DNA from: an uncultured Actinomycetes bacterium
GTDB lineage: Bacteria > Actinomycetota > Coriobacteriia > Anaerosomatales > CAMTYE01
Assembly (NCBI GenBank): GCA_947085935.1
Contig: CAMTYE010000001.1
Location: 40,878 to 104,877, forward strand
DNA length: 64,000 nucleotides
Direction of reading: 5' to 3'
In this document: one piece after another, positions 13,784 through 33,742 of the stretch
Numbering within the stretch: position 1 is the stretch's first letter
Layout: each line of letters starts with the position of its first letter
Notes under the pieces: generated by a model
Told to the model about the DNA's origin: nothing
Database searches by the model: none
Seen by the model: the letters and a program-made list of their open reading frames with translations, nothing else
Made by a program: the position numbers and the translations under genes

Positions 13784-13787
13784 GATG

Positions 13788-13799: not shown

Positions 13800-13957
13800 A
13801 AAAACGGAAAAAGGCAAGTGGTAGCCGGCAGCAGCGGTTTTCCTCGGCAGGCCCGAGCGGGCCTGGCTCCGCTGCGCGCGCCTCTCGGGTATCATTGGGA
13901 CGTCCATTCTGGCGCCCTCGTCGCGCCTCGCCCCGAAACCGGGAGGAACAACCGCTC

Positions 13958-14260
13958 ATGGCGATCTCCGAAGAGCAGGTGCGCCACGTTGCGCTGCTCG
14001 CGCGCCTCGCACTGACCGACGACCAAGTCGTGGCGCTCCGCGAGGATCTCAACTCCGTCCTCGGTCATATCGATACGATTCAGCAGCTCGATCTCGAAGG
14101 TGTGGAGCCCACGGCCCACCCGCTCGATGTCGTCAACGTCATGCGGGCCGACGTGGTCAAGCCCACGCTCCCGCGCGATCGCGCGCTGCTCAACGCACCG
14201 GACTCTGACGGCACCGCGTTCAAGATCCCGCAGATCGTCGGGCCGGGTGAGGACTCGTGA
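13958..14260 (+). CDS. gatC: Asp/Glu-tRNA amidotransferase subunit C
   Basis: ISEEQVRHVALLARL...L.NAP......FK.P.I; GGAGG RBS; precedes gatA. Confidence 0.93.
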   Translation: MAISEEQVRHVALLARLALTDDQVVALREDLNSVLGHIDTIQQLDLEGVEPTAHPLDVVNVMRADVVKPTLPRDRALLNAPDSDGTAFKIPQIVGPGEDS

Positions 14261-15744: not shown

Positions 15745-15774
15745 TCATCGCTCGGAGGTGCCGCGGGCAATCGC

Positions 15775-16368
15775 TCAGGGCACGGCGGGTTCCGCTCCGG
15801 GCACGGCGATCACTACCGTGCGATTGTCTCCGAGCCAGCGCGGAAGACAGGTATACATGCGCAGTTCCTCGGTGGACCCCGGTGCGAGGACTTCCGTGTC
15901 GTCCGGGGTGGTCACATACTGCCGCTCTACTCGGTAGACGTGTTCGCGGCCGTTCCACCAGAGCAGAACCGGATCTCCGGGCCGCAGGCGGGACAGGAGC
16001 GCCAGGGCACGCCGGTTGCGATGCCCGGCGATCACGATACTGCCGGCCTCTCCGGGTATGCCGGTCTCCGGATGATGGTAGGCGCCGACGGACAGCGCCC
16101 TGTCAGGGTCGCCTTCGGCGACGGGCACGTCGACGGCGATTCGGGGGATGACCAGCCGGTCGCCGTCGGGTATCGCGCCTTCGTCCGAAGAGCGTGCGGA
16201 CGAGACGTAGGGCCACCGTTCACGCACGAGGCCCAGTGTCCACGACGTCTCCGGCCAGAGCTGCCAGATCGCGACGCCGATCGAGGTCGCGGCAACGAGG
16301 ACCCCGAGGGCGATCAGCGCGCGGCCGATCACCCTCGAGTGCTCACTCGTGTATGTGGTGTTACGCAC
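15775..16368 (-). CDS. Sortase (class D/E-like); start uncertain (16368 or 16332)
   Basis: N-terminal TM, LVIPRI, AGHR (His), MYTC (Cys), downstream R; directly follows giant sorting-signal protein. Confidence 0.88.
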   Translation of the reverse strand: MRNTTYTSEHSRVIGRALIALGVLVAATSIGVAIWQLWPETSWTLGLVRERWPYVSSARSSDEGAIPDGDRLVIPRIAVDVPVAEGDPDRALSVGAYHHPETGIPGEAGSIVIAGHRNRRALALLSRLRPGDPVLLWWNGREHVYRVERQYVTTPDDTEVLAPGSTEELRMYTCLPRWLGDNRTVVIAVPGAEPAVP

Positions 16369-19300
16369 TGCGAAGTCGTCTGCGGCCCTGGAGCATGAGC
16401 CATGCGGCCGCGATGAGGCCGGCCAGCACTCCGCCGATCCAGAGCCGGTCGTCGGAGCCTGTCTGCAAAAGGGTCGCATCGCCTATCTCGGGGGTTTCGG
16501 GCGAATCAGACCGCTTAGGTGCGCTCTGATCGGATCGCACGGTGGCCTGGTTCCTGATCACCGTGCCCTTGGGGAGACCGGCCTTCACGGAGCTTCGGAA
16601 CGTCAGTACGACTGACTCGTCGATTCGGAGAGTGCCGACATCCCACGCAAGGTCGGGAGCATTCGAATCATCGCCGCCGCGACCGGTGATGGACCCGCTC
16701 ACGTAGACGGTCTCGGACGGGACGGTATCGTCCACCCGTACGCGCGTCGTCGGTGTGAGCCCGGTGTTCGTGATCGTGATCGTCCACTCGATCTGATCAC
16801 CGGCCATGAGGCGTCCGCCGTTGATGTCACGACCCGTCTTGATGATCTCGATCGGGTCGACCGGGTGGTCCACTGGCCCCGCACCGGCGATCGGCTCGCC
16901 GGCGCTTGTAGCCGTGGCGTAGTTCCGAACGCCCCGGCGGGAGAACTCCTCGGCACGTATCTTGACCTGGAAGGAGATGCTGACAGTCGCATCAGGGCTC
17001 ACGTCCCCGAATGACGCGTAGATGGCGCCCTGCGGTCCGAGTCCGCCCTCGAATGCCGCTTCGTCGCCGTCGATGTCGTCCGTGAGCGGGAAGGAGGCCG
17101 CTCCACTCTCCAGCAGGATGGATCCGGCCACGTAGGTTACCGAATCGGGCAGTTCATCGAGGAACTCGACTGATGGCAGCACGACCGGAGTGCCGTTCGT
17201 GAACGTAAGCGTGTATGTCAGAACGTCGCCCGGGAGCACGATGGTGCCGGGGGCGGGGTCGGCGTCCTTGATCAGGGTCACGTCATCGATATCGTATGTG
17301 CCGACGGCTATGGTCGCGTCGACTCCGGCGGGGAAGTCGCCGAACTCATCGACGGCTGCCCCGGCGGGCACGGAGGCGGTGTTGACCGCAGAGGCGCTCG
17401 GGGCAATGGCTTCGAAAGCCACGGTCATCGTGGCCGTGCTGCCCGGTGCCATGTCGCCGAAGTGAACAGTGATGTCGTTCCAGTTCAGCGTCTCTGTGGA
17501 AACGGAGCCGGGAGCCGGCATCGCGTCGGTGAACGCCAGCGCCGAGGAGTCGAAGGTATCGACCACGGGCACGACTGCCAGCGTGGTGTCGCCGGTGTTG
17601 GTGACCGCCACGTCGTAGACGACCGGTTCGCCGAGTGCGAAGACCGGGTCCTGGCCTGCAGCGAGCGTCTTGGCGATCGAGACCGATGGTGCCGTGATGC
17701 CGATCGCAGCCGAATCGGTCACGTCCGGCGCCGGGTCGGAGTACTCATCGATCGCGCCGCTCACCGTGGCGGTGTCTGTGGTCGAGCTGACAGCGGGATG
17801 GCCGATCGCCGAGAAGGTGACGGTGACGGTCGTCGCGTCACCGATCGCGAGTGAGCCTGCACCCGTGAGGTCGATCCAATCGACGGTGCCCACCGAGGTG
17901 CTGTCGCTGGAAGGTGCGGCGCTCACGAGATCGAGGTACGCCGGATCGAACAGGTCTGTCAGCGGCAGCACATCGATGGCGGTCGTACCGGTATTGGTGA
18001 GGACGATCTCGAAGCTCACCTGCTCGCCGACCTGGATGTGCGCATCCTGTCCGGGTGCCAGGTGCTTGTCGATCGCGACCTCAGGCCGGGTCACGAGCAC
18101 GTCATCGCTGTCCGTCACGGGGCCGCGCTCCTCACCCGCACCATCATCGGCGACCGCTGAAATCCCGTTGGTCGCGACTCCGGTCGGTGCGGAGAGCTCG
18201 ACGTGTGCTTCGAAGGTGATGACCACCGTCTCGCCGGGAAGAACCTCGGTGCCGCCGAGCGACCATGTCGCCGCCGACCCGATGATGGTCGGGTCCGTGG
18301 TGGTGGTCGTGCCGGCAGAGCTGTCGACGATCACTGCGGATCCGGCGACGTAGCTGAGTCCGGTCGGCAGGGCGTCGGTGATGGCGGGGTCGAAGGCCGA
18401 CGCGTCACCGGTGTTGCTGAGCACGACGGTGAAGTGCGCATTCTGGCCGGCCTGCAGCTCCAGGTCGCCCGTCGCGAGCTTGGTGATACCCAGCCAGGGA
18501 GCCCGCGTGGTGATCGTCTCAGTGTCACTGATCGAGCCCCACGTCCACTCGTTGATGTCGGTTCCCGGAAGTGAACTGTACTCGGTCACTTCGGCCAGGT
18601 TGTCGAATGTCAGACCCGAAGCGAGGCCGCCGATCAGCGATGCCGTGTACGTGATGCGAACGACCTGGCCGCTGCCTATCGGGGCGAGCAGGTCGATAGT
18701 CGGCGCCGTACTCACCGAGAAGTCGGCGATGTAGTCCACGCCATCGGTCAGCGGTGAGCCGTCGAGCGTCACGCCGAGGAGGAGAGGGCTGCTACCGAAG
18801 GTGAGCTCCGCAGGAATCGTATCTGCCCATGCGACATCATAGGCAGCGCCCGTACCCGTGTTCGTGATGTCCACTGTGTAGGTCGTGACCTGGCCGGGGT
18901 CGAGCGTGGCGGATCCGACCGTCTTGTCGATCGTGAGGACCGGCTGCACGATGGTGACCGTCTCGGTGTCCGAGTCGTCGGCAGCGGCATCGCCGTTGAT
19001 GTCGACCACGCCGCTCACAGTGGCGGTGTCGGGGCTCGAGACCGTTTCGGCTTCGGCGCGCACGGTGACCGTCACAGTCGTGGTCTGACCGGGAGACAGG
19101 TTTCCAAGGCTGGCGGTGATATCGTCCCACGTCAGCGTACCGGCTACCGCGGTATCGGGTCCCGGATTCGCTGAGACGAACGAGACCGTTGCCGGGTCGT
19201 AGACATCGGTGAGGGGAATCACGTCGAGAACGGTGTCGCCCGTGTTGGTGACGGCCAGGTCGAACGTCGTGGTCTCACCGAGTCGCACGGTGGAAGGCTC

Positions 19301-22300
19301 GCCCGCGGATACGCTCTTGGTGATGGCTACGGCGGGCGCCGTTATGCCGATGTCCTCGGAATCGCCTACCACGGGAATCGGGTCACCGTATGCATCCGTC
19401 GCTCCGGCGACTGCCGCTGTGTTGGTCGATGCGCTCGTGGGGGGATGGGCGATTGCGGCGAACGTGACCGTGACCGTCGTCTGCTCCCCGGGCGCCAGGT
19501 CTCCGGACAGGGTCGTAAGGTCGGTCCATGATGCGCTTCCGACAGCGGTCGTGTCGGCCGAGGGGGTCGCGACGATGAATTCGAGATACGCCGGGTCGAA
19601 TGTGTCTGTCAGCGGCAGGACTGCGATCGTGGTGTCCCCCGAGTTGCTGACGACTACGTCGAACGTGACCTGTTCACCCACCTGGATGAACGGATCCTGA
19701 CCAACAGCGAGCTGCTTGCTTACGCTGGCTCCCGGCACCGTCACGAGTATGGTGGCGAGGTCCGCCGACGGCGCGATATCGACACCGCCACCGTCGGATG
19801 CGCCTGCCACGCCCGTGTTCGGCTTGATACCCACCGCAGCGGCCGGGTCGACGTTGGCATCGAACGTGAGTGTGAGGGTCTCACCCGGCAGGATCGTCGA
19901 GGGCGGGAAGGACCACACGAGTGTGGAGCCGTTGACGGCCGGATCAGCCGATGATGATCCGGCACCCGACCAGGTCGCCATCGAGGAGCCGGGAACGTAC
20001 GTGAGGCCCGCGGGGAGGGTGTCGGTGAGAACGACGCTGTAGGCGGTCGCGTCGCCGACGTTGGTGACCCGGAGCTGGAACGTGCCGTCCTGGCCATGTT
20101 GCAGCTCGGTATCCCCGATCACTGTCTTATCCAGTGAGATGACCGGGGCCTGACTCGTGATCGTCCAGCTGTCGGTGATCGGTCCGTAGACGTTCTCCTC
20201 GGGATCCGCTCCGGGCAGTGACGAAGCCACGGCGCCCGCCGTGTTGGTCAGAACTGTTCCTCCGGCCGTGCCGCCAGCCAGATCGACGGAGTACTGAAGC
20301 TCGAAGGTCTCTCCGACCTGCAGTGGAGAGGCGAGCGTTACGGCCATCATGGTCGGGGCCGAGAGGTTCGTGACGTAGTCGACCCCGGCCGCGAGGGGCA
20401 CCGAGTCGAGAGTGGCGCTGATCCCGTAGGGCGACCACAGCTCGGAGGGAACCGCGTCACCGAGCACGACATCGAACGCGGGACCGGTGCCGATGTTGGT
20501 GAGGGTCAGCGTGTAGACAGCGGTCTCGCCCGGACCCATGAGCACGCGGTCGGCCGACTTGGTGAGCGTCAGCAGCGGCTCTACCACGGTAGCGCTCGCC
20601 GTGTCGCTGTCCGGGGCAGGTGTGTCCCCGTTGATGTCGGTCGCGGACGTGATCGTCGCTGTGTTCACCGAAGAGACGGCGGCGTTGCGGCCGCGAAGGG
20701 TCACATCGACCACAACGCTGTCACCGGGAGCGATATCGCCCAGACTGGTGGTGATGTCGGTCCAGGTGAGGGTGCCCGCGGGACCGGAGCTGTCCTCGGC
20801 AGGTGTCGCCGATACGAGCTCGAACACAGAGGAATCGAAGATGTCGCTCAGCGCGAGGGCGGTGATCGTGGTGTCACCGGAGTTCGAGAGTTCGATCTCG
20901 TAGTCGACGGTGTCGCCGGCGGATACCGTCGCGTTCTGACTGGCGGCCAGACGCTTATCCACCGCCACGGAAGGCGCGGTGATTCCGATCGTCGCCGCTG
21001 ATGTCGCGGTCGGCGTAGGGTCGCCGTACTGGTCGGTCGCCGGGGAAACGGACGCGGTGTTGACGGTGCTGCTCGCGGGCGGGTGGCCGATCACGTCGAA
21101 GGTGACGGTGACGGTCGTGCTCGCACCGACGGCAAGCGAACCCGCACCGGTGAGGTCACTCCATGTCCGCAGCCCGGCGCTACTCCCGTCCGGGGCGACG
21201 GATGCGCCGGCGAAGGACAGGTACGCTGCCTCGAACGTGTCGGACAGGGGAACGATGTCCAGAATCGTCGAGCCGCTGTTGGTGACTATCAGGTCGAAGG
21301 TGACCTGCTGCCCGAACTGGACGAAGGGGTCCTGCGCAGGGGCGAGCAGCTTGAGCAGCGATATATCCGGCCGCGTGATCAGGATGTCCTGGGTGTCGCT
21401 GGACGGGGTGACCGGGAAGCCCGCTCCATCCTCGGCAGATGCTACGGTGGCGTTCGTGGCCGTTCCGAGTGAGGCGGTCGACTCGATGGATGCGCGGAAC
21501 GTGTACGTCGCCGTCTGACCGACAGCGAGGTCGAGCGCCCCGCCGAAGTCCCACACGAGCGACGGGCCCACGGCCGCAGGGTCGTCACTGAACGCGCCGA
21601 TGCCCGGCAGGATGCCCGTAGTGGATCCGGGGACGTACGTGACACCCGGGGGCAGGGTATCGGTGAGTAGCACTGAGAAGGCCGGGGCCGTGCCGGTGTT
21701 CGTGATGTCCAGTCGGAACGTCGCTTCCTGCCCGGCCTGCAGCTGTGCGTCTCCGACGACACTCTTGTCGAGAAGGACCGACGGTGCGAGCGCTGTCAGC
21801 GTGACGCTGTCGCTGACGGGGCCGCTCACGCGCTCGCCGGTTGCCGCAGACGGCAGGGAGCGGTACTCGGTGACGCGGGCGTCATTGGTGACCGGCGTAC
21901 CGTTCGGGATCCCCCCGTTGAGTCGTGCCGTGTACACGATGACTGCCGAGGAGCCCGGTGCCAGCGGCACCGCGAAATCAACCGTCGCGGTCTGATCGGT
22001 CGCGAAGTCGGCGGTGAAATCGACACCTCCGGTGAGCGGAGATCCGTCGAGGGTCACGGTCACAAGCGATGGGCTCGCCCCGGCGCTGAACAGGCTCGCG
22101 GGGATGTGGTCCAGCCAACGCATCTCGTGCGCCGTTGAAGAGCCGTCGTTCGTCACGGTCACGGTGAACGTGACCTCCTCGGCGGCACCGAGCGACGCGC
22201 GGCTCGCCGACTTGTCGATCGTCAGATGCGGTTCGACCGCCGTGATCGTCACGTCGCTCGTGGAGCTCATGGGGGTTCCCGCGACGTCAGCGGTATCCCA

Positions 22301-25300
22301 GTCGATGCGAGCCCTGTTCAGGATGGAACTCTGCACGTCGCCGTCAACACCGGGTGGCAGTCCGTCGAGCGGGGCGCCGCCGTTGAAGGCGTTGTCGACG
22401 CGCACACCGATCGTCAGGACGAGCGTGCCGTAGGGGGGGTTGGTGACGTCGCCCAGGTCCCAGCTCACGGGCGTTTCGCCGGCAACCTCGGCTCCCACGC
22501 TCACCGACCCGATCGCGTCGGAGGGCGTCGCGTACAGAACCGTCAGACCGTCGGGGACCAGGTCTGAGATGACCATGTTGTATGCGGTGGTGGAGGCCGG
22601 AATCGAGAAGCTCACGAAGTACTCGTACTCCTGGCCGATAGTGCGGGTGGTGATTCCGGACTCGATCGTCTTGACGATGAGCGCGTCAGCGACACTCACG
22701 GTCGCCTGGTCCGTATCCGCAGTCCACGCGGCTTCAGCCGGGCTGTCGTTGTAGACGCGCTTGTCGGGAGAGGCGGGGTGGCTTGTCCAGTCCACATCCG
22801 CCGTGTTCGTCTGCGATGAGCCCGCGCCCGCGCCCGGATCGATGCTCGCGCTGTAGTCGATCGTGATCGTCTCGGTGGTGCCGAGCGAGACGTTGTCGAA
22901 GTCGACTGTGACCATGTCCCCGTCGGAGAAGTCGGGCGTCACGTCGGCGATGATGTCGCCCAGAGCGGAATGGGTCACTGAGACGAGCGTCGGGTCGGAC
23001 ATGTTGGGAGCCAGGATGTCTTCCCAGCTCAAGTCGTATGCACGCGCGAATCCGGCTGTGTTATCGATGACCACCCGGTAGTTCACGGTGTCTCCGCCGG
23101 CATACGGGCCCGTGCTCTGTTCCGTCTTGTTCAGCGTGAGGCGCGGCTGATCGACGTCCAGGGTCGCTGCCGATGAGGCGGACGTAGGTGAGCCTCCCAC
23201 AGTCCAGTGGATGCGTCCCGTGTCGGCAATCGTGTCGGCCGCTGTGGGCGGGAAGAACCGCCAGCCCGCCGCATCGGTGATGGCGTCGACGCGCATCGTG
23301 TATGTGAGATCGAACACGTACGGCGTGTCGCCCGTGGTGGGCGCTGCGCTCGAGTTGTCGATGGGAGCCACGAGATCGAACCGGACCGTCGATCCCGGGT
23401 TCGGCGAGTCGTCGAAGACGACACCCGAAAGCGCCGCCGCGATCTGCGGGGACCCCGAGACGAGAGCGAATGCGGCCGAGCCGGCGTTGTACGTCAGGCC
23501 GTCGGTCGCGATGGTGTCTGAGAGATACGAGTCCGGCAGGACCGTCTCGGCCGGCACCGTGACCCGCAGGCGATAGGTGACATCATCGCCTATGCGAGCC
23601 GGATTCGGCCCGACGATCGTCTTGACGATAGTCGGTGAAGCGATGGATATCGATGTGAAGTCCGTGTCGGCGAGGTAACCGCTCTCCCATGCCGGGTTGT
23701 CGTCATAGCGCCTGCTGCCTGCGGGCGTCCCAGGCAGGGAAGACCAGTCGATATCTGACAGGTTGGCCAGGTTGACCGAGGCGGGCACGTCGGGGTCCAC
23801 GACGGCCGTGTACGTGATGGTGATCGTCTGTCCGGGTGCGAGTGAGACGGCATCGAAGTCGATTGACAGAGCGGGCGGGCTGGTGAAGTCGGGCGTGATG
23901 CTCCCGAGGATGTTGCCGAGAGCCGAGTGGGTGACGCCGGTGAGCACCGGGGTGTCGATATACGTGGGCAGGGTGTCGGCCCAGTCAAGGTCGTATGCCG
24001 GACTCCATCCGTTGTTCGCGAGCACTACCCGGTAGCCCACTGTCGAGTTGCCCGCATAAGGCCCCGGCGTGGTGACTGTCTTCGCCAGCGTCAACCTGGG
24101 CTGGTCGATGTTGGTCCAGACACTGGCGGGGTTGTACGTTGCCGAGGCATCGCGGGTCCCCACGTTGGTCGTTGCCCAGCTCACGACCGCTGACTGGTTC
24201 GTGACGCGGTCGTTGGCCGTCGGCTGCCAGAACTCCTGTGTGCCGTTGTCGCGGACGCCGGTGTACTGCAGCGAGAAGGTCAGGCGGAACGCGTACTCGG
24301 TCGATTGACCCGAGTTATCGATCGGGTTCGCGAAGTTCCAGGTGAGCGTCGTCAGGTTGTTCGAACCCGTACCCCCTCGCGTTGGCGTGGAGGTGGAGGC
24401 GAACGAGGCGGGTCCGGGGGGTGTTCCGGCGAGTGTGGATATCGAGGCGCTCCCGGGAACGTAGTAGACGCCGTCCCGGTTCATGGTGTCGACGATGCGG
24501 GGGATATACGCGGTCGCTCCGACCGGCACGGTCACGTCGATGCTGGCGACGAATGTGTCACCCACGGTATACGGCCCCCCGGGCCAGTTCTTTCTGATCC
24601 GGAGGGGCGAGAGCGTGACAGAGGCGTCATCGGTGTTGGGGTCCGAGACGGAGGACGTTCCGGGTACGGTTCGTCCGGTACCGTCGGGTTGAGTGTCGTA
24701 GGAGACCGTTGCCAGATCGGTCAGTGTCCTACCCGCGCCGATACCCGTGTCGACGACCGAGTCGTACTCGATCACGAGTTGTCCGGCCGCCGGTATGGGC
24801 GTATCGATGGCACCGTCGTGCAGATCGATCAGCCACACTCCCGTGCCTGCGGCGTAGGATGTCGTGTAGTCGACACCGGCGATCAGGGGTGAGCCGTTGA
24901 GTGTGATAGCGGTTATCGCCGGGGGTGTTCCGCGCATTCCCACAGGCAGAGTGTCCGTGACGAGCACATCCTCGGCAGACCCGAGGCCGGAGTTGCCGAT
25001 GGTGACGCGATAACCGACGGTTGAACCGGCGACGAGTGGCGAGGGAACCGAGATGGTGTTCTTGTCGAGCGACAGTCTGGGCTCAACATACTCCAGGGTC
25101 GCGATATCCCGATCGGAGTACTCCTGCCCGAACGTGTTGATTCCGGTCATCTTCCAGTGGTTTCCGGTCTTGAGTCCTTCTGCTACGACCGGCACGTTCT
25201 GAACGGTGACCGTGAACGTGGTCTCCCACCAGCCGTCGGCACTGACGTCGCCGAGGAACCACTCCAGACCCGAGAGCGAACCGATGCTAACGTTCGCGGG

Positions 25301-27073
25301 GGTGTCAGGATTGACCGCAGGAGGAGTCCCGGTGGTCGGTACGGTGAAGGTCGCATCATACGTGGGCACAGCGTCGCCGTTGTAGAGCACGCCAGGAGGG
25401 AGCCAGTCGGTAACCGTCATGTAGCCCATCGAGATGTCATCGCGGAGGGGCGTTGCGCCATCGTTCGTGTTGAAGCGGAGACGATACAGGATGTCGTCGC
25501 CGACCTGCGCGTCGATGGTGTCGGTCCACATACTGAGATCCGGATCCCATACGGCCTTCTCGATTCCCGGAAGCCCGGTGGACAGAGCGGCGTTCACCGT
25601 GGCGACGAGGACGTCAGAGTCGGTCCTCGGCGGCTTGACCTGGTCATACCAGGTACCGGCGAGCTTTGCGGTGTTGGTCATCGAGTCGCCTGCGCGAATC
25701 GGCTGGCCGGCGTACGGAGCCCGCTCCCACGTCGTGTCCATCGATGCCTGGAAGGTGAGGACGGCCCCATCGGTCGTGCCGAGGGCAGCGAGCTCCGTCG
25801 GCCCCCAGATGATGACGGTGGTGCCGTCAGGGTTGGGTGTGACGCTGGCCGGTGCCGGCGTGCCACCGGTAACGCCCGCGTATGTCAGTCCGTCGGGCAG
25901 GGTGTCGGTGACGGTGAGGGTGTCGGCCGTGAAGTACTGCGAGGTGACGTAGGTGAGCGTGTAGTCGATGATCGTGCCGTACCCGCCGCTCGAGGGCGAG
26001 CCGCCCTTGTCAATCGTCATGTAGGTGCCCTCGACGGACGCCGAGTCGGTATCATACGGGGTGATCGTCGCAGGGAGAGAGCCCCTGTAGGCGCTCTGGA
26101 GGCCCGCGGTGTTCAGGAAGCTGGTCTTGTGGGGGATTATCGCCGCAGTGGCCGGGGTGGAGACGAAGTCGGTGGTCAGGCGATTCGTGCCGCCGTTGGC
26201 TGTCCCGTAGTAGTCGTACCGTATACCTGCATCGTAGACGATCGTCGTGTTCTGGCCGGGAGCCATCGTGCCGAGAGTCCACTTGAGCTGCGTGATCCCG
26301 GTAGCGGGGTCTCGCACGGGATAGCCCGGATCGAGAGCCGGTCCGCTTGCCACTCCGAGGAACTCGACGCCGTCGGGGATGGTGTCGGTCAGGACCACGC
26401 TGGCCGTCGGATTCGTGTAGTTGTTCTGCACATCGAGCGTGTATGTGTAGGCGCGGCCCTCGGTTCCGGTCGCCTGCTGCACGCCCGTGGACTGGTTCGC
26501 GTCCTTCACAACAAGCAGGATGGGGGTGACGGTCCCCTGAGCGCTGTCGGCCCCTGCATACCAGGTTCCGCTGTTGTCGGGGATGTCGTTGACGCGTGCA
26601 TCGACGGCGAGGGTGAGCAGGTCGCCGACCTCCCAGCCCGGGTCTCCCGAGATGTCGACTTCGAAGGTGAGCGTGAAGGACTCCGTCGGTGCCAGGTCGA
26701 CCATGTCGAAGAACTCGAGGTCCGTATCGCCGGTACCGGGATTCAGCCGGACTGTCGTTGGTGGCACACTCGAACTGCCGATGGTCACGCGTCCGGCGGG
26801 GTTTGGAAGATTGCTGGCGAGAAGGGCATCGACTGAGAGGTTGTAGCCCTTGACGTCACCGTTGTTGGTGACCGTGATGCTCACAGTCGCCGTCCCACCG
26901 AGAAGCGGGTCGCTGACTGATGTGGACACCGAGAGAGACGGCGCCGCGTATGACGGCTCGGGTGCAGCCACGGTGAACGTCGTGAGCGAGAGCATCAACG
27001 CCAGGCACAGCCAGACTCTCAGAAGCTTGTTTCCTGCTGAACGGTGCCACGGGTACGACGATGGCAGCAACAA
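16361..27073 (-). CDS. Giant (~3,570 aa) sortase-anchored surface protein with ~24 DUF11/isopeptide-type Ig-like modules
   Basis: Repeated L...K......G....Y...V.N.G......L.D.LP...N.A modules; signal peptide; C-terminal LLQTG + TM + RRRLRSA; TTG start placed after GGAGG, with TACAAT at 27109-27114. Confidence 0.9.
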   Translation of the reverse strand: MLLPSSYPWHRSAGNKLLRVWLCLALMLSLTTFTVAAPEPSYAAPSLSVSTSVSDPLLGGTATVSITVTNNGDVKGYNLSVDALLASNLPNPAGRVTIGSSSVPPTTVRLNPGTGDTDLEFFDMVDLAPTESFTLTFEVDISGDPGWEVGDLLTLAVDARVNDIPDNSGTWYAGADSAQGTVTPILLVVKDANQSTGVQQATGTEGRAYTYTLDVQNNYTNPTASVVLTDTIPDGVEFLGVASGPALDPGYPVRDPATGITQLKWTLGTMAPGQNTTIVYDAGIRYDYYGTANGGTNRLTTDFVSTPATAAIIPHKTSFLNTAGLQSAYRGSLPATITPYDTDSASVEGTYMTIDKGGSPSSGGYGTIIDYTLTYVTSQYFTADTLTVTDTLPDGLTYAGVTGGTPAPASVTPNPDGTTVIIWGPTELAALGTTDGAVLTFQASMDTTWERAPYAGQPIRAGDSMTNTAKLAGTWYDQVKPPRTDSDVLVATVNAALSTGLPGIEKAVWDPDLSMWTDTIDAQVGDDILYRLRFNTNDGATPLRDDISMGYMTVTDWLPPGVLYNGDAVPTYDATFTVPTTGTPPAVNPDTPANVSIGSLSGLEWFLGDVSADGWWETTFTVTVQNVPVVAEGLKTGNHWKMTGINTFGQEYSDRDIATLEYVEPRLSLDKNTISVPSPLVAGSTVGYRVTIGNSGLGSAEDVLVTDTLPVGMRGTPPAITAITLNGSPLIAGVDYTTSYAAGTGVWLIDLHDGAIDTPIPAAGQLVIEYDSVVDTGIGAGRTLTDLATVSYDTQPDGTGRTVPGTSSVSDPNTDDASVTLSPLRIRKNWPGGPYTVGDTFVASIDVTVPVGATAYIPRIVDTMNRDGVYYVPGSASISTLAGTPPGPASFASTSTPTRGGTGSNNLTTLTWNFANPIDNSGQSTEYAFRLTFSLQYTGVRDNGTQEFWQPTANDRVTNQSAVVSWATTNVGTRDASATYNPASVWTNIDQPRLTLAKTVTTPGPYAGNSTVGYRVVLANNGWSPAYDLDWADTLPTYIDTPVLTGVTHSALGNILGSITPDFTSPPALSIDFDAVSLAPGQTITITYTAVVDPDVPASVNLANLSDIDWSSLPGTPAGSRRYDDNPAWESGYLADTDFTSISIASPTIVKTIVGPNPARIGDDVTYRLRVTVPAETVLPDSYLSDTIATDGLTYNAGSAAFALVSGSPQIAAALSGVVFDDSPNPGSTVRFDLVAPIDNSSAAPTTGDTPYVFDLTYTMRVDAITDAAGWRFFPPTAADTIADTGRIHWTVGGSPTSASSAATLDVDQPRLTLNKTEQSTGPYAGGDTVNYRVVIDNTAGFARAYDLSWEDILAPNMSDPTLVSVTHSALGDIIADVTPDFSDGDMVTVDFDNVSLGTTETITIDYSASIDPGAGAGSSQTNTADVDWTSHPASPDKRVYNDSPAEAAWTADTDQATVSVADALIVKTIESGITTRTIGQEYEYFVSFSIPASTTAYNMVISDLVPDGLTVLYATPSDAIGSVSVGAEVAGETPVSWDLGDVTNPPYGTLVLTIGVRVDNAFNGGAPLDGLPPGVDGDVQSSILNRARIDWDTADVAGTPMSSTSDVTITAVEPHLTIDKSASRASLGAAEEVTFTVTVTNDGSSTAHEMRWLDHIPASLFSAGASPSLVTVTLDGSPLTGGVDFTADFATDQTATVDFAVPLAPGSSAVIVYTARLNGGIPNGTPVTNDARVTEYRSLPSAATGERVSGPVSDSVTLTALAPSVLLDKSVVGDAQLQAGQEATFRLDITNTGTAPAFSVLLTDTLPPGVTYVPGSTTGILPGIGAFSDDPAAVGPSLVWDFGGALDLAVGQTATYTFRASIESTASLGTATNATVASAEDGAGFPVTPSSDTQDILITRPDISLLKLLAPAQDPFVQFGQQVTFDLIVTNSGSTILDIVPLSDTFEAAYLSFAGASVAPDGSSAGLRTWSDLTGAGSLAVGASTTVTVTFDVIGHPPASSTVNTASVSPATDQYGDPTPTATSAATIGITAPSVAVDKRLAASQNATVSAGDTVDYEIELSNSGDTTITALALSDIFDSSVFELVSATPAEDSSGPAGTLTWTDITTSLGDIAPGDSVVVDVTLRGRNAAVSSVNTATITSATDINGDTPAPDSDTASATVVEPLLTLTKSADRVLMGPGETAVYTLTLTNIGTGPAFDVVLGDAVPSELWSPYGISATLDSVPLAAGVDYVTNLSAPTMMAVTLASPLQVGETFELQYSVDLAGGTAGGTVLTNTAGAVASSLPGADPEENVYGPITDSWTITSQAPVISLDKTVIGDTELQHGQDGTFQLRVTNVGDATAYSVVLTDTLPAGLTYVPGSSMATWSGAGSSSADPAVNGSTLVWSFPPSTILPGETLTLTFDANVDPAAAVGIKPNTGVAGASDGGGVDIAPSADLATILVTVPGASVSKQLAVGQDPFIQVGEQVTFDVVVSNSGDTTIAVLPLTDTFDPAYLEFIVATPSADTTAVGSASWTDLTTLSGDLAPGEQTTVTVTFAAIAHPPTSASTNTAAVAGATDAYGDPIPVVGDSEDIGITAPAVAITKSVSAGEPSTVRLGETTTFDLAVTNTGDTVLDVIPLTDVYDPATVSFVSANPGPDTAVAGTLTWDDITASLGNLSPGQTTTVTVTVRAEAETVSSPDTATVSGVVDINGDAAADDSDTETVTIVQPVLTIDKTVGSATLDPGQVTTYTVDITNTGTGAAYDVAWADTIPAELTFGSSPLLLGVTLDGSPLTDGVDYIADFSVSTAPTIDLLAPIGSGQVVRITYTASLIGGLASGLTFDNLAEVTEYSSLPGTDINEWTWGSISDTETITTRAPWLGITKLATGDLELQAGQNAHFTVVLSNTGDASAFDPAITDALPTGLSYVAGSAVIVDSSAGTTTTTDPTIIGSAATWSLGGTEVLPGETVVITFEAHVELSAPTGVATNGISAVADDGAGEERGPVTDSDDVLVTRPEVAIDKHLAPGQDAHIQVGEQVSFEIVLTNTGTTAIDVLPLTDLFDPAYLDLVSAAPSSDSTSVGTVDWIDLTGAGSLAIGDATTVTVTFSAIGHPAVSSTTDTATVSGAIDEYSDPAPDVTDSAAIGITAPSVSIAKTLAAGQDPVFALGEPVVYDVAVTNTGDTTLAVVPVVDTFDSSALAFTDAMPAPGSVSTETLNWNDITVHFGDMAPGSTATMTVAFEAIAPSASAVNTASVPAGAAVDEFGDFPAGVDATIAVGTYDIDDVTLIKDADPAPGTIVLPGDVLTYTLTFTNGTPVVLPSVEFLDELPDSVTYVAGSILLESGAASFPLTDDIDGDEAAFEGGLGPQGAIYASFGDVSPDATVSISFQVKIRAEEFSRRGVRNYATATSAGEPIAGAGPVDHPVDPIEIIKTGRDINGGRLMAGDQIEWTITITNTGLTPTTRVRVDDTVPSETVYVSGSITGRGGDDSNAPDLAWDVGTLRIDESVVLTFRSSVKAGLPKGTVIRNQATVRSDQSAPKRSDSPETPEIGDATLLQTGSDDRLWIGGVLAGLIAAAWLMLQGRRRLRSA
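17300..22235 (-). repeat. Three tandem copies of a four-module (ABCD) super-repeat, ~1.65 kb each
   Basis: Units start near 22235, 20582, 18946 (PHLTIDK/PLLTLTK/PVLTIDK) with recurring GD..LQ.GQ and QDP..Q.G.QV.F modules; boundaries approximate. Confidence 0.75.
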
Positions 27074-27139
27074 GGTGACCTCCCCGGATGAACGCGCTGG
27101 TTCATCACATTGTATTGCACTCATCCGGCTCCGTCGCGC

Positions 27140-27184
27140 TCAAGTGATGTACCATTTGAGTCGACAACTAATCTGTGTCGATAC
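27140..27184 (+). promoter_or_regulatory. Two overlapping putative sigma28/WhiG-type promoters for the 7TM kinase
   Basis: TCAA-N16-GTCGACAA (27140-27167) and TGAG-N16-GTCGATAC (27157-27184). Confidence 0.4.
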
Positions 27185-27211
27185 GGGCTGTCTCGCAAGG
27201 GGAAGGACCTG

Positions 27212-29059
27212 ATGATCCAGGTCAGCATAGTCTCGCTGCTGCCCCTTGCCGCGGCTGTCTTGTCGGTGTTCCTCGCCGCGAGTACCCTCAGAGTACGCGG
27301 ACGAGGTAACCCGACGGTCCGTTTCTTCTTCGTGCTGAACATGGCGACCGCGCTGTGGGCGTTCTTCTACGCCGTCGAGCTCAACATCGAGACCCCCGTC
27401 GTGCTGGACCTGGCACCTCTCGGTAGCTGGCACTACGTCGCCTACATGCTGCAGATCATCGGTCTGAGCGCAGCACCCACGTACTGGCTTCTGTTCGCCG
27501 CCGCGCATGCCGGCAAGCAACGCCTCACGACGGGTCCGGGCTTCTGGCTCCTCAATGTGCCGTTCGTCTATGGTGTCGTGATCGCCGCCCTCAACCCCGC
27601 GCTGCAGTGGTTCGTCACCCAGGACGGTCCGGGGGCACCGGTCGGCTACGGGCCCACGGCCTACCCGCATCTGGTCTTCACGTTCGCCTTGGTCGGCTGG
27701 GGTACATGGCTCCTGATAGCGTCGGTCTGGAATCCCGGAACGGTGCGAAGCCGACGCAGCGCGCAACTCCTCGCGTTCGCGACCACCGCTCCGTTCCTCG
27801 GCGGTCTGCTCTGGGGCATCCGTCACCTTATCGGCCTGAACCTCACCATCCACCCGGTGCCGATCCTGTTCGCGCTGCTCAACGCGGTGCTGCTCTATCA
27901 GGTCCTCAACAACGGGCTTGCGGATATCATCCCTGTCGCCGCGTATCAGGCCTTCCGGACAATGGCCGATCCGGTACTGGTGGTCGACGGCGATGGCGTG
28001 CTTGTGGCCACGAACACGGCAGCGGAGCGACTGATCCCGGACCTCCAGCCGCGGGTGATGCTCTCGGACGCTGCACCGTGGCTCGCGCAACATGTCTCCA
28101 ACTTGAACCTGTTCTCCGAGGACTGCCTGGAGTTCGAGGCCTCGGTGGCGGATACGGTTCTGTGGGGTCGGGCCCGGAGGACACGCGACGGCAAGAGTCG
28201 ACCGGTCGGCTTCATCGTGATGCTCACGGACGTGACAGAGATACGCGCGCTTCAACTCGACCTCCAGGCGGCGAACCTGACGCTCAGGGACAAGATCGAG
28301 CAGTTGCGAGAGGCCAGATCGCGTGCCGAGGAGCGCGGCGAGCGCCTGCACGAGCTCAACACGCAGCTCGAAGAGGCCACACATGCCAAGAGCAGATTCC
28401 TGGCGAACATGAGCCACGAGCTCCGCACGCCCCTCAACTCGATCATCGGCTTCTCGGGCGTGCTGCTCCAAGAGGCGGCAGGGCCCGTGACGCACGAGCA
28501 GCGCGTTCAGCTCGAGATGGTCCGGTCGTCGGGACGCCGGTTACTCACCCTCATCGACGACATCCTGGACCTGACCAAGATCGAGGCCGGACGGCTCAAG
28601 GTCTCGACCGGCGCATGCGATCTTCGCGATGTGCTCGCCGCGGTCGATGCGACCGTTCGCCCGCTGGCCGACGAGAAGGGGCTCACGTTCGAGGTGGGGC
28701 TTCCGTCGATGCCGGTGGAGATCACCACCGACCGGGTCCGGCTGGAGCAGATACTCCTGAACCTGGCGACGAACGGCGTCAAGTTCACCGACCATGGTGG
28801 TGTCGGCATCGGTGTGCGGGTCGACCGCGAATCGGTGGAGATCCGTGTCGCCGACACCGGAATAGGGATAGCGCCCGACAAGCTGGACACCGTGTTCGCC
28901 GAATTCGAACGGCTCGCTCATCCGGATGGCCACACGCGATCCGGCACCGGTCTGGGCCTGGCGATCAGCCGACAGCTAGCCTACCTGCTCCGCGGCGAGA
29001 TCGCTGTCGAGAGTGTCCTGGGCCGGGGATCGACCTTCACGCTCACGATCCCGCGTTAG
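27212..29059 (+). CDS. Sensor histidine kinase with N-terminal 7TM (HisKA_7TM-like) and PAS-like domain
   Basis: ~7 TMs, SHELRTPLNSIIGF H-box, N-box LATNGVKFT, DTGIGI, GTGLGL; no receiver domain. Confidence 0.92.
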   Translation: MIQVSIVSLLPLAAAVLSVFLAASTLRVRGRGNPTVRFFFVLNMATALWAFFYAVELNIETPVVLDLAPLGSWHYVAYMLQIIGLSAAPTYWLLFAAAHAGKQRLTTGPGFWLLNVPFVYGVVIAALNPALQWFVTQDGPGAPVGYGPTAYPHLVFTFALVGWGTWLLIASVWNPGTVRSRRSAQLLAFATTAPFLGGLLWGIRHLIGLNLTIHPVPILFALLNAVLLYQVLNNGLADIIPVAAYQAFRTMADPVLVVDGDGVLVATNTAAERLIPDLQPRVMLSDAAPWLAQHVSNLNLFSEDCLEFEASVADTVLWGRARRTRDGKSRPVGFIVMLTDVTEIRALQLDLQAANLTLRDKIEQLREARSRAEERGERLHELNTQLEEATHAKSRFLANMSHELRTPLNSIIGFSGVLLQEAAGPVTHEQRVQLEMVRSSGRRLLTLIDDILDLTKIEAGRLKVSTGACDLRDVLAAVDATVRPLADEKGLTFEVGLPSMPVEITTDRVRLEQILLNLATNGVKFTDHGGVGIGVRVDRESVEIRVADTGIGIAPDKLDTVFAEFERLAHPDGHTRSGTGLGLAISRQLAYLLRGEIAVESVLGRGSTFTLTIPR

Positions 29060-30632
29060 TAGTCTCCTCCGAGGTGACTCCCGCAGGGGCGATGGTCGAT
29101 CCCAGGTACTGGTTCTTGATGGTCTTGGTGCCTGAGAACGGCCCGCATCCGCGCGCGTACACGGCGACCTGAGGGTCGGCGACCTGAGGGTTGTCCTGGT
29201 ACGCATCGCGGAAGTCCTGGTTGATGCGGTACAGGCCGGTCACGATCAGCGCGTGGTAGCGCTGTGCGAGGTCGTTCGCGTCCGAGTCTGACAGCAGCTC
29301 GTCGTGGTGCTCCAGGGCGATGCTCAGTCTCTGCGAGTACTCGGCGTCGGTATCGACGGCCAGCCTGAAGGTGAGGATGTCGGAATCGAACTCCTCGGCG
29401 AGAATCGCCTGGATGTTCTCGGGGTAGATGTTGGCGCCCACGACCGAGACGGTCCCGTCGCTGCGCCCGAACACGTAGAAGAACGGCAGCTGCCAGATCT
29501 GCTCGCGACCGTAGCCGAGTTCGGCGAGGCGGGGCAGGACGTCGTAGCCATGGTCCCGCAGGATCTCGAACGTGCCCTCGTAAGGCAGCAGCCCGCCCCG
29601 GTCGTGGATGTTGTACCGCACGAGCGGGATGCCGGACATCACGGTGAACGCGAGTTCGCGATCGACCTCCTCGATGTAGCAGGTGGACGGGTTGTACTGA
29701 AGGAGTGCGGGCAGCGCGCCCGAGCGCACGCACGGGTCCTTGAACAGCGCCTCGGCAAGCGATGCGTCTTCCGTGCACAGACGCCGTATCAGAACGGTCA
29801 GCGGGTATTCCCTACCGATGGTCATCCCGACATCCGCAGCCCCGTAGCCGCCGCTAATCGCGAGCAGGTCGCGCGAGCAGTCGACGCCCAGGATGCGGCC
29901 CATGTGGCTCCGCCACTGCTCGGAGTATCCCTCGCCACCGAGTCCGAGCTTGACGTTCAGGTCTTTCCAGGCGACACCCCGCCGAGTGCCCTCGTCGATG
30001 ACGGTCTTGAGGAACGGGGGGTAGCCGACCATGACGACCTGGTCGTAGTGCGGTCCGAGGTCGTTCACGATCTCGAGTATCTCCTCGGCATTGGTGCCGG
30101 GCGCCATCACGGTGAGCGGGTACTTGCCCGTTGCCGCGACCTGCCGGAGTGCCTGGGCCATCTTCTCGCCGCTGGTCCACGTGCCCAGAGCCAGGGTGAT
30201 CAGAACGAGTGTCGAGCGCGTGTCCATCCCGTAGAACTGCACGAACGCGTACTCGAGGTAGCTCGGGAACAGGGCATCCTCTTCGGGCAGTCTGAGCCAG
30301 TAGTACGAGCCGCCGTGATGGCCTGAGCTCTTCTCGATCGTGTACGCCCCCGCCGCGCGACCGTCCAGGCACAGCGACGGCAGATCGAAACGGTCGATGT
30401 AGCTCTTCTTGTCGATGACCGGGAGCGCGCAGAACGCGGCGTGGTCGGGGACGTCGAGGGAGTGGCCGAGCGAGGCCAGGTGCTCGGGGTAGGCGCGGGT
30501 GCGGGTGATGGCCGTCCGTGCGACCTCGAGCGCGCGTTTCGCACCGCGCCGCTGGTGGCTTTCGGTCGGAACGCGCGACATCATGGCGTTCGTGAGCTTC
30601 CGGTTGCTCATGACGATCGATTGCATGCTCAT
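29043..30632 (-). CDS. Phenylacetate-CoA ligase (PaaK)-like adenylate-forming enzyme
   Basis: LPVIDK..Y, SSG loop (KSSGHHG), GYPPF, GGEG, YGAADVG, PLVRYNIHD.G, GRSD...GANIYP. Confidence 0.85.
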   Translation of the reverse strand: MSMQSIVMSNRKLTNAMMSRVPTESHQRRGAKRALEVARTAITRTRAYPEHLASLGHSLDVPDHAAFCALPVIDKKSYIDRFDLPSLCLDGRAAGAYTIEKSSGHHGGSYYWLRLPEEDALFPSYLEYAFVQFYGMDTRSTLVLITLALGTWTSGEKMAQALRQVAATGKYPLTVMAPGTNAEEILEIVNDLGPHYDQVVMVGYPPFLKTVIDEGTRRGVAWKDLNVKLGLGGEGYSEQWRSHMGRILGVDCSRDLLAISGGYGAADVGMTIGREYPLTVLIRRLCTEDASLAEALFKDPCVRSGALPALLQYNPSTCYIEEVDRELAFTVMSGIPLVRYNIHDRGGLLPYEGTFEILRDHGYDVLPRLAELGYGREQIWQLPFFYVFGRSDGTVSVVGANIYPENIQAILAEEFDSDILTFRLAVDTDAEYSQRLSIALEHHDELLSDSDANDLAQRYHALIVTGLYRINQDFRDAYQDNPQVADPQVAVYARGCGPFSGTKTIKNQYLGSTIAPAGVTSEETTNAGS

Positions 30633-30663
30633 GTGCCGTTCCCCCTACGCCTGGTGTCCTGTG

Positions 30664-31440
30664 CTATGTGCTCCACTCGTCCCAGCCATCGTCGAGCATC
30701 GGCCGGGGAGCCGTGCGAACCGCGAGTCCCAGCGTGAGGCGCACCATCGCTTCGACGACCAGACTTGCCGAGCGGTGCGCCGCCACGCCAAGCTGGGGTG
30801 CCGGTCGATCGGCAGCCGCAACGATCTCGGGAAGCTCTCCGAGTCGGCGGGCAAGATACGCGGGTAGGTGCATGCCGATGGTGGACGCGAGGAGCCGGCC
30901 GATGTACTCGCCATCGTTCGCGGGCGGCTCGGGCCCCACCATCTCCTCGAGCGTCGCTGATTCGGGGGTGAACACCATACAGAACCCGCCCCACCCCATG
31001 TTCATGGGGAAGAGCACGGGAACGCCGGCCTCGCGCGCCGCCGCATTGAGCGCGTAGCCGACCTCGTCGAAGTCGACTGTGTTGACAACCAGATCCGCCG
31101 AGGAGACGAGTCGCCCGGCGTTGTCTGCCGTGACGCGTTCGGGAACGACGGCGATCTCGAGCTCCGGGTTGCGGGATCGCAGGATCGAGGCGAGCGCCGA
31201 GGCCTTGTTCTGGCCGACGTGCGTCAGATCGAAGGCCTGACGGTTGAGGTTGGAAGGCTCGACGATGTCGTGGTCGCACAGCGTGAACCGCGTGAACCCG
31301 GTCTGACAGGCGAGCGAGGCGATGGTGCTCCCGAGTCCACAGCCCGCGAGCAGGATGCGGGCGTGCCGAATCCGCTCTTGCTCCGGAGTCGAGATGAACG
31401 CCCAGTTGCGGGATGTCAGCTCGGCGTAGGCGTCTTCCAA
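30664..31440 (-). CDS. ThiF/E1-like adenylyltransferase lacking zinc CxxC motifs
   Basis: SRN....EQ, LAGCGLGS, D.D.VE.SNLNRQ, G.NKA, PQL motif; TTG start with GAGGA RBS. Confidence 0.88.
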   Translation of the reverse strand: MEDAYAELTSRNWAFISTPEQERIRHARILLAGCGLGSTIASLACQTGFTRFTLCDHDIVEPSNLNRQAFDLTHVGQNKASALASILRSRNPELEIAVVPERVTADNAGRLVSSADLVVNTVDFDEVGYALNAAAREAGVPVLFPMNMGWGGFCMVFTPESATLEEMVGPEPPANDGEYIGRLLASTIGMHLPAYLARRLGELPEIVAAADRPAPQLGVAAHRSASLVVEAMVRLTLGLAVRTAPRPMLDDGWDEWST

Positions 31441-31618
31441 GATTGTGATCCTCTGCGATGCCGGCGTGTGTCGGGACGTGACAAGCAGGGTGCCGTACTG
31501 TATATGCCCGACGAAGAGCCGGTGTACCGCAGGGCGCGCAGTATTCGCGAAGCGAGTTTATGTCGGACCACGTCAGCACATGCGGCGAGCGTGTCCCCAC
31601 ACACCGCTGCGGCTCGGG

Positions 31619-31624
31619 TAGAAT
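31619..31624 (+). promoter_or_regulatory. -10 element giving gatB its own promoter
   Basis: TAGAAT ~100 nt upstream of gatB start. Confidence 0.45.
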
Positions 31625-31721
31625 CGTGAGCGCGCCCCGCGAGTTCCTCGCGCAGCATGGCGCCCGGGTGGAGATTCCGCTGTCCGGAACGAGCGAGAGA
31701 CGATCGAGACCGGAGGGCCCT

Positions 31722-33275: not shown

Positions 33276-33359
33276 TCTGCGGGCCGCTGAACGGTATTCC
33301 GGTGAACGTATGTCCGACTGGCGCGCCGGTATCGCGTCGAGATGAAGAGGAGCGCCCAT

Positions 33360-33638: not shown

Positions 33639-33690
33639 GCGAGGCCCGTTCCGGCTCGGCCTGTGAATGCGACCGTTCGGCGCTTTGACC

Positions 33691-33718: not shown

Positions 33719-33742
33719 GGAGCACAAAGGGGTGTTGCGGGC

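Follow-up and report, generated by a model that had tools for sequence, protein, structure and literature searches.

Why do approximately 16 kb of sequence separate gatA from gatB in an uncultured member of the Coriobacteriia, and do the genes in between belong together? The question comes from a 64-kb stretch of contig C1 (C1:40878-104877) of the genome G000 (1.78 Mb, 76% complete), which is referred to here as the window. Public sources name its close homologs as Coriobacteriia or Actinomycetota. Five genes occupy the interval according to Pfam and a listing of open reading frames (ORFs): a sortase, a 3587-residue DUF11 adhesin, a HisKA_7TM histidine kinase with a seven-transmembrane (7TM) sensor, a PaaK-like enzyme and a ThiF-like enzyme. 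The last three are called the trio below. The initial annotation of this sequence placed the end of gatA, the start of gatB and the five genes between them correctly, as judged by Pfam and by alignment with relatives. It also presented the interval as a single inserted module of about 16 kb, in which a quorum signal made by the enzymes would be sensed by the 7TM kinase, with the adhesin as the output under regulation.

Here we describe the interval in relatives of the same order and follow the PaaK-like enzyme and its 7TM sensor into other phyla. The explanation that we favour, with somewhat better than even confidence, is a composite gap that holds an adhesin cassette and an older enzyme-sensor signalling module.

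Composition of the gatA-gatB interval

Contigs of four public sequencing runs, among them X1 and X3 from one study and X4 from another, were compared with window positions 14500-34000. One X4 contig (record 25, 7371 nt, approximately 93% identical) covers 14500-15734 and 27173-32563 and omits the 11438 nt between them, with 133 other letters in their place. This contig carries gatA, the kinase, the PaaK-like gene, the ThiF gene and gatB without 15735-27172, and therefore the adhesin and sortase form a separate 11.4-kb cassette, the boundaries of which are approximate because the comparison used a threshold of 90% likeness. The run has zero cover over the adhesin at a likeness of at least 90%; the argument rests on the bridging contig and not on the absent cover. 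Presence/absence polymorphism between close relatives was found for this segment only, by way of this one contig, and the trio is present on it. Joints between contigs with small sides (for example 15486>30467, side 21) were disregarded as likely repeats or other organisms. The gene order of the window is also found in the other runs. Contigs of X1, which may be the source sample, span gatA and the sortase (14773-16994), the adhesin and the kinase (24420-30216) and the ThiF gene and gatB (30187-31947), and X3 record 18 spans gatA and the sortase at 15500-15872. The order is therefore not a binning artefact.

Orthologs of the cassette genes lie elsewhere in other genomes. In G037 identity is 54-61% along most of the adhesin ortholog (in several frames) and 50% for the sortase ortholog. 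The pair is flanked by orthologs of two genes, DUF255 and MFS, that are adjacent in the window (36240-38060 and 38114-39397). It shares a contig with the trio at a distance of approximately 9 kb, which would suit a single module, but unrelated genes intervene, and the kinase next to the pair is a different one, of the SBP_bac_3-PAS type. A sortase and a DUF11 protein are found near an MFS gene in G010. The trio is present in G024 (97% complete), in which no sortase match was found, and in the available flanks of loci L033 and L043/L044 nothing scores above 80 bits against sortase or adhesin. Only in G000, among the genomes examined, do adhesin and kinase adjoin. The cassette is variable between close relatives and is found at a different site in another family.

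The interval itself is not peculiar to this genome. Both gatA and gatB were sought in 40 genomes of the same order and lie on one contig in 26; in the other 14 they are on separate contigs or lack a match. The gap measures 34-148 nt in five of the 26 relatives (G014, G039, G019, G020 and G022) and 0.9-8.4 kb in the remaining 21, so that the 16 kb seen here is the longest among 27 measured. Its contents differ among relatives and include ABC1 kinases, class III aminotransferases, Glu-synthase-like, PASTA or PAS proteins, a CWB2 protein and a MacB-type ABC transporter. Two members of one genus differ, G024 with a gap of 7.5 kb and G039 with contiguous genes. The contrast within a genus and the varied contents indicate that the gap is a recurrent site of change, and the split is the usual state in the order. 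The gap between gatCA and gatB is rearrangement-prone across the order, and the insertion into a contiguous pair that the initial annotation proposed is not borne out. A search of the literature on gatCAB synteny gave nothing that bears on the history of the gap.

The block has few of the marks of an island. The GC content at third codon positions (GC3) is 0.81-0.88 within it and 0.80-0.90 outside, with no compositional shift. No integrase, transposase or other mobility domain was found among the five genes with Pfam and NCBIfam, and neither flanking or att repeats at the block edges nor a tRNA at the block were found; the absence of integrase and att repeats had been noted from the start. A GGAGG in the spacer behind gatA had been proposed as a possible relic of the former junction. 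It is present 9 nt past the stop codon, and MAFFT places GGAGGTG (15754-15760) over the gatB ribosome binding site GG(G/A)GGTGG of the contiguous genomes G014, G020 and G022. As a relic it amounts to just 7 nt, and GGAGG occurs 83 times on the plus strand of the window, or approximately 0.04 expected per 30-nt spacer. In the same kind of alignment the split genomes G021, G024 and G037 have no remnant of a ribosome binding site after gatA. GGAGG alone would be weak evidence for a relic junction.

One inserted module with the adhesin as its output is therefore hard to reconcile with the close relative that has the trio between gatA and gatB and lacks adhesin and sortase, with the open gap in most relatives and with the missing island marks. 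The divergent arrangement of adhesin and kinase, with starts only 87 nt apart, and the alignment of GGAGGTG speak for it, but the window holds no response regulator to connect the kinase with the adhesin. We consider such a module very improbable.

The trio is, in contrast to the cassette, a resident neighbour of gatB. The order gatB, HisKA_7TM kinase, then PaaK-like and ThiF genes on the opposite strand is found in G024, G037, L033 and L043/L044. In these sister lineages the trio lies directly downstream of gatB; here gatB is on its other side. In G024 the trio is followed by a second kinase, adjoining the ThiF gene, and by a secreted protein of approximately 240 residues, and the window has orthologs of both (33743-35209, named HK2, and 35206-35895, 229 residues). 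The PaaK-like gene of G020 is surrounded by NYN, CWB2, HDAC, homocitrate synthase and aconitase genes, as in the window. A quick tree places the PaaK-like proteins encoded at gatB-linked loci with ThiF together in one group, with a Shimodaira-Hasegawa-like approximate likelihood ratio test (SH-aLRT) support of 84%, inside a clade of ten rows with 99% support. Judged by these gene orders, the neighbourhood is inherited as a whole, with local shuffling, and the trio is a resident module and not an arrival in the gatA-gatB gap. Upstream of gatB, GTAGAAT is invariant in all five trio-bearing loci aligned (G000, G024, G037, L033 and L044), and the wider TCGGGTAGAATCG is common only to G000, G024 and G037. 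It appears that gatB carries its own conserved upstream region.

Taken together, the 16-kb interval is very probably a composite of the 11.4-kb variable adhesin-sortase cassette and a 4.3-kb resident signalling module (27212-31440). The initial suggestion of possible separate arrivals of the five genes agrees with this structure and with the X4 contig. Split gatCA and gatB genes in Actinobacteria offer a parallel, with gatC and gatA together and gatB apart with an apparent promoter of its own; in Mycobacterium tuberculosis a gene lies between gatA and gatB. The locus described here differs by the 16-kb gap and by a signalling module that elsewhere adjoins gatB downstream.

A PaaK-like enzyme and its neighbouring 7TM sensor

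The PaaK-like protein passes no Pfam family at E <= 0.001 and no NCBIfam cut-off. It is ruled out as a PaaK ortholog, with 23.8 bits against the PaaK model TIGR02155, the cut-off of which is 646.3. Its identity comes from the predicted fold. An AlphaFold2 model built with 20 homologs (pLDDT 85.2, pTM 0.85) matches BT_0428 (4r1m) and PaaK1 (2y27) best in Foldseek (E 2e-19, TMt 0.76), which indicates the two-domain ANL fold. Further matches are the PaaK-family AMP-ligases 6six, NatL2, AjiA1 and ClxA and a 2-hydroxyisobutyryl-CoA ligase. A profile search of the PDB finds PaaK at 2.8e-15, with the GRSDG stretch aligned to GRSDD of PaaK2, and the ESM Atlas returns only clusters named 'phenylacetate-CoA ligase family' without Pfam families. 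Among the 20 homologs S102, D344, G389, R390 and K506 are invariant and S103, G104, G107 and D392 are near-invariant. The P-loop reads SSGHHGG, a variant form. ANL enzymes are known for nucleotide-binding, hinge and catalytic-lysine motifs, and the SSG..G loop, the YxxxD motif, the GRxDG hinge and a C-terminal lysine are shared with PaaK1/PaaK2, BT_0428, NatL2/AjiA1/ClxA and the 2-hydroxyisobutyryl-CoA ligase, as is the fold (Foldseek E 2e-19 to 1e-13, TMt 0.69-0.78). The protein differs from these in being just 12-17% identical and approximately 90-100 residues longer than those chains, and its gene lies nearly always beside a 7TM sensor and not in a paa, capsule or benzoxazole cluster. On the strength of the model it is probably a PaaK-family adenylate-forming enzyme of an uncharacterised subfamily.

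The family is large, with 481 matches at E <= 1e-5 among 8000 scored candidates. A 958-residue metagenomic protein (P0124) has a distant PaaK-like C-terminal half (29% identity) and an N-terminal half of approximately 490 residues without Pfam match.

The ThiF domain of the partner enzyme is clear (PF00899, 127.7 bits against a Pfam cut-off of 28.1), and the protein stays below the cut-offs of the NCBIfam models for ThiF, MoeB, TcdA and UbaA. Neither the stretch 31380-31760 nor the small ORFs of related loci yielded a ThiS- or MoaD-like candidate with a C-terminal Gly-Gly.

The kinase scores 75 bits for the 7TM domain (PF16927), 76 for HisKA and 88.4 for HATPase_c, against cut-offs of 28.6, 26.9 and 26.4. 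Read with the positive-inside rule, which is a reading of the alignment and not a tool output, the sensor would have seven helices, the N-terminus outside and basic inner loops. The outer loops in the same reading are short (approximately 17, 22 and 9 residues), which suggests a ligand site in or at the membrane. F39, W49 and G147 are invariant. In the literature searched, which did not extend to subscription journals, HisKA_7TM is only listed among sensor domains, chiefly those of haloarchaeal kinases, and the passages that mention it name no ligand or partner. The present kinase resembles those HisKA_7TM kinases in having PF16927 above the Pfam cut-off followed by HisKA and HATPase_c. It differs from them, so far as those accounts go, in its near-constant enzyme partner and in the non-kinase outputs of its relatives. 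G037 encodes a second, stand-alone HisKA_7TM protein (L012:15123-16271, 382 residues) without an output domain, divergent from the ThiF gene and 44% identical to the sensor domain of the window kinase.

The PaaK-like gene is present in 10 of 41 genomes of the order, and a PF16927 gene directly adjoins it in nine, the distant copies of G013 and G017 included. The exception is G032, an assembly in 470 contigs in which the gene lies on a short contig. That contig (G032:C220, L007, approximately 3.6 kb) bears three tandem PaaK-like copies, which the family tree divides between two deep branches. G000 itself has exactly one PaaK-like and one PF16927 gene. A scan of genome contigs gave 12 loci, nine of them new. 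Pfam places PF16927 next door in seven; L036 has an apparent split ORF, and in L042 the domain was recognised via a custom hidden Markov model only. A metagenome scan gave 33 loci, 18 of them extending 1 kb or more past the PaaK-like gene on its downstream side, and 17 of these 18 have a 7TM match, the exception being L068. Pfam was run on 15 of 18 metagenome ORFs with a 7TM match (a duplicate, a 54-residue fragment and a contig already counted as L042 were omitted), and all 15 are PF16927, L066 just below the cut-off. Extra 7TM ORFs from G017 and G013 also fall just below it.

The linkage holds in Coriobacteriia, Patescibacteria and Saccharibacteria, and much else about the loci changes. The 7TM domain is followed by HisKA-HATPase, by GAF-HisKA-HATPase (in Patescibacteria and Saccharibacteria), by PAS-GAF-SpoIIE or by GAF-HD_5. 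The two genes are convergent or co-directional, in either order. A class-I S-adenosylmethionine (SAM) methyltransferase gene lies within 2.5 kb in 21 of 46 PaaK-like rows, many of which lack the upstream flank, a ThiF gene in 10 and both in two. A conserved membrane protein of approximately 110 residues without a family match is encoded between the PaaK-like and 7TM kinase genes at L037:7551-7883 (Patescibacteria) and L038:4550-4885 (an uncultured bacterium), and may be a further component of the module. The literature searched, again outside subscription journals, held nothing on a pairing of PaaK-like proteins or F390 synthetase with a histidine kinase, and the pairing is apparently undescribed.

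Gene layout, the adhesin cassette and neighbouring genes

The features of the region are collected in Table 1. Picking ORFs by GC3 missed the sortase and gatC, and both were taken from the ORF listing. The GTG at 31722, given as the start of gatB, is where the gatB proteins of relatives align from residue 1. The start of the kinase is most likely the listed ATG, because all homolog alignments start there. The initial annotation was right that adhesin and kinase diverge; the shared promoter region that it put at approximately 140 nt shrinks to 87 nt between the two ATG codons (27212 and 27124). It was also right about the ThiF and PaaK-like genes and about their convergence on the kinase. The ThiF frame had to be replaced by the 258-residue ORF of Table 1, and the PaaK type is given by fold only. 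A 366-residue ORF at 30629-31729 was considered as the ThiF gene and rejected as an off-frame artefact without any family match. With the revised frame the distance from the end of ThiF to gatB is 281 nt. Rfam gave no match in 12000-36000 at E <= 0.1, so a leader RNA upstream of gatB was not found.

Table 1. Features in and around the gatA-gatB interval, in window positions
Feature	Positions	Strand	Evidence and remarks
gatC	13958..14260	+	PF02686 GatC 2.9e-19 over residues 181-251 of ORF 13472-14260; G037 gatC aligns to 13958-14254
gatA	14257..15744	+	PF01425 Amidase 3e-146; 65-83% identity to gatA of the same order
Adhesin-sortase cassette	15735..27172	no strand	11.4 kb; skipped by the contig of a close relative
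GGAGG	15754..15758	+	9 nt past gatA stop, in the 30-nt spacer between the gatA and sortase stops
Sortase	15775..16368	-	ORF extends to 16479; start codon probably GTG at 16368, overlapping the end of the adhesin gene; PF04203 1.4e-24
Giant fibrillar adhesin, 3587 aa	16361..27124	-	14 DUF11 stretches, DUF7507, DUF7927, DUF7619
Orphan HisKA_7TM sensor histidine kinase	27212..29059	+	PF16927, HisKA and HATPase_c
PaaK-like adenylate-forming enzyme, 529 aa	29043..30632	-	Convergent with kinase, ends overlap by 17 nt; fold-based identity
ThiF-family adenylyltransferase-like protein, 258 aa	30664..31440	-	PF00899 5.3e-37
TCGGGTAGAATCG motif with -10-like TAGAAT	31614..31626	+	Approximately 97 nt ahead of gatB; from aligned gatB upstream regions
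gatB	31722..33275	+	GatB_N 2e-108, GatB_Yqey 4e-47; within ORF 31560-33275; 69-80% identity to full-length gatB of relatives
Second histidine kinase HK2	33743..35209	+	HisKA and HATPase_c; conserved right-hand neighbour of the trio

The adhesin begins with a hydrophobic, signal-like segment and ends in TLLQTG, a transmembrane helix and RRRLR (window 16361-16420). According to PMC12617251, its domains DUF11 (CLIPPER), DUF7507 (CLIPPER_2), DUF7927 and DUF7619 are isopeptide-bonded stalk domains of fibrillar adhesins. The C-terminal signal is kept in four orthologs, as TLLQTG in G037, G004 and G010 and as TLLRTG in G026, and in the same four genomes an orthologous sortase adjoins a DUF11 protein. 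The sortase domain of the window gene scores 86.6 bits (PF04203), and the protein passes the generic model TIGR01076 (45.6 bits, cut-off 39.35). None of the NCBIfam class A-F models reaches its cut-off, the best being class E with 65.9 against 160. With a sorting motif, transmembrane helix and basic tail in the adjoining substrate, the two look like a dedicated sortase and substrate of the ordinary kind, though the motif is unusual. They would be co-transcribed, and the divergent sortase presumably recognises the C-terminal TLLQTG of its CLIPPER/DUF11-stalk substrate. The pair shares with sortase-anchored CLIPPER adhesins the tandem DUF11, DUF7507, DUF7927 and DUF7619 domains, the signal-like N-terminus, the sorting signal and the adjacent sortase. 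It differs in the sortase, which is below the class A-F cut-offs, and in TLLQTG/TLLRTG, which is not among the motifs searched in PMC12617251.

TLLQTG, once as TLLRTG, is common to five DUF11 adhesins of different families, that of the window and those at L090:7704-9221, L087:1-1311, L091:2824-5694 and L092:9724-11544. From these sequences the conserved motif and the class-less sortase may represent a distinct sortase specificity. In G037 both gatA (L012 1566-3069) and the adhesin (L090 7728-18427) align in two or three overlapping frames, which suggests frameshifts or assembly errors.

Other genes of the window complete the picture. A 98-residue protein of the TIGR04076 family (70 bits, cut-off 33) is encoded directly after gatB at 33342-33638. 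It has no equivalent in G024, where a 126-residue gene at the matching place is not homologous as read from both sequences. Just upstream of gatC, the ORFs 11055-12602, 12616-13140 and 13185-13472 have coding-like GC3 and no Pfam match at E <= 1e-5. The window codes for three histidine kinases (27212-29059, 33743-35209 and 60527-62791) and no receiver domains, and for two GGDEF proteins (3194-4309 and 39426-40700).

A possible synthase-receptor system

The functional link once proposed among all five genes finds support for the enzymes and the 7TM kinase, as PaaK-like and 7TM genes adjoin in nearly all loci examined, and is not supported for the adhesin, which adjoins the kinase only here. The co-occurrence comparison divides in the same way: the PaaK-like and 7TM genes stay together across phyla, and the adhesin and sortase do not stay with the trio. 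From gene adjacency we consider a functional coupling of the enzyme and the 7TM sensor probable, with good confidence.

What the coupling consists of is proposed as follows. The PaaK-like enzyme would activate a small carboxylic acid with ATP and, with the ThiF-type enzyme here or with the class-I SAM methyltransferase in most other lineages, would make or convert a hydrophobic acid derivative. This derivative would be the ligand of the membrane-embedded 7TM sensor and would set the output of the kinase. That the enzyme makes or processes the ligand of the sensor has, in our estimate, slightly less than an even chance. In the proposal we infer the catalytic activity of the enzyme, its substrate, synthesis as opposed to removal of the signal, and the downstream regulator. 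More tentative still, and rather unlikely in this full form, is that the enzyme together with the methyltransferase and/or ThiF makes a novel carboxylate-derived hydrophobic signal (an ester, amide or thioacid), with HisKA_7TM as its dedicated intramembrane receptor.

The quorum-sensing pairs CqsA/CqsS, LuxM/LuxN, RpfF/RpfC and PhcB/PhcS, each a signal synthase with a polytopic sensor kinase, likewise have an enzyme gene beside the gene of a multi-pass membrane sensor. The short outer loops seen here hint at a ligand site within the membrane, and the methyltransferase partner recalls PhcB. The enzyme, sensor and accessory families of the present system are unrelated to those of the known pairs, its outputs include PP2C and HD-GYP types, and it is known from gene adjacency alone.

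Several observations weigh against the composite, enzyme-sensor explanation or its parts. PF16927 genes occur in 22 of the 41 relatives and 13 of these 22 genomes have no PaaK-like gene, and therefore the sensor family at large does not require the enzyme. At L068, nearly 2 kb of flank on each side of a PaaK-like gene contain no 7TM, methyltransferase or ThiF match. The enzyme genes are convergent with the kinase in G000, G024 and G037 and do not form one operon with it. No response regulator was found near the kinase, as none of the 29 REC-domain matches of the genome falls in the window. ThiF proteins as a rule require a carboxylate on a protein or peptide, and a small partner of this kind was not seen at 31380-31760 or in related loci. 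The ThiF-type clade has only its 84% support from a quick tree. Many loci are inter-related and the counts exaggerate their independence, although a large distance separates Patescibacteria from Coriobacteriia. For the cassette, the event could be either an insertion here or a deletion in the relative. A prediction of the complex between the PaaK-like protein and the 7TM domain (residues 1-258) scored 0.00 and 0.00 and is uninformative on binding.

The best surviving alternative gives the enzyme a catabolic or detoxifying role. The 7TM domain would sense an external aryl or short-chain acid, and the PaaK-like protein, as a coenzyme A (CoA) ligase, would degrade or remove the acid and so end the signal. 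The nearest solved structures are indeed CoA ligases (PaaK1/2 for phenylacetate, the Bacteroides acyl-CoA ligase BT_0428 and HCL for 2-hydroxyisobutyrate), and an enzyme that nearly always accompanies the sensor, when the sensor is also found alone, fits an accessory that tunes the level of a ligand. However, no ring oxygenase, thiolase or enoyl-CoA hydratase is found in the annotated loci, the usual methyltransferase or ThiF partners are not catabolic, and outputs of the PP2C and HD-GYP types are not direct switches of catabolic operons. We judge this role unlikely.

A modification of the receptor is less probable again. CheR and CheB tune chemoreceptors, and by analogy the PaaK-like enzyme and the methyltransferase or ThiF might act on the sensor or dock to it and adjust its sensitivity. 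The 7TM domain alone is a near-constant companion of the enzyme, irrespective of the output that follows, and methyltransferases and ThiF proteins, from what is known of their families, can both act on carboxylates. Against this, PaaK-family enzymes of solved structure act on small molecules, and the longer proteins include no fusion of the enzyme to a 7TM domain or methyltransferase; the one match has an unrelated N-terminal half, and this evidence is weak. Inherited synteny without functional meaning is scarcely credible: the Coriobacteriia do share the neighbourhood as a whole (gatB, HK2, HDAC, homocitrate synthase, aconitase, CWB2 and NYN), but the pair is kept in Patescibacteria, Saccharibacteria and other lineages of approximately 40% GC that share no other gene of it, and functional coupling is preferred because a rare PF16927 gene stays beside the enzyme however the orientation, the output domain and the accessory genes change.

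Neither the separation of gatCA and gatB nor the strain-variable adhesin cassette is out of the ordinary, and the conserved TLLQTG with its own divergent sortase is a small addition to the sortase specificities. The enzyme and sensor have wider implications. An orphan sensor family gains a near-constant partner from a family of acid-activating enzymes, which makes the question of its ligand testable. If the proposed coupling of synthesis and sensing is true, it would be a new synthase-receptor system in Coriobacteriia, Patescibacteria/Saccharibacteria and probably Cyanobacteria. Patescibacteria and Saccharibacteria have very small genomes and depend on host bacteria, and the signalling modules that they retain are of particular interest. 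HisKA_7TM sensors would thereby also gain a first class of ligand.

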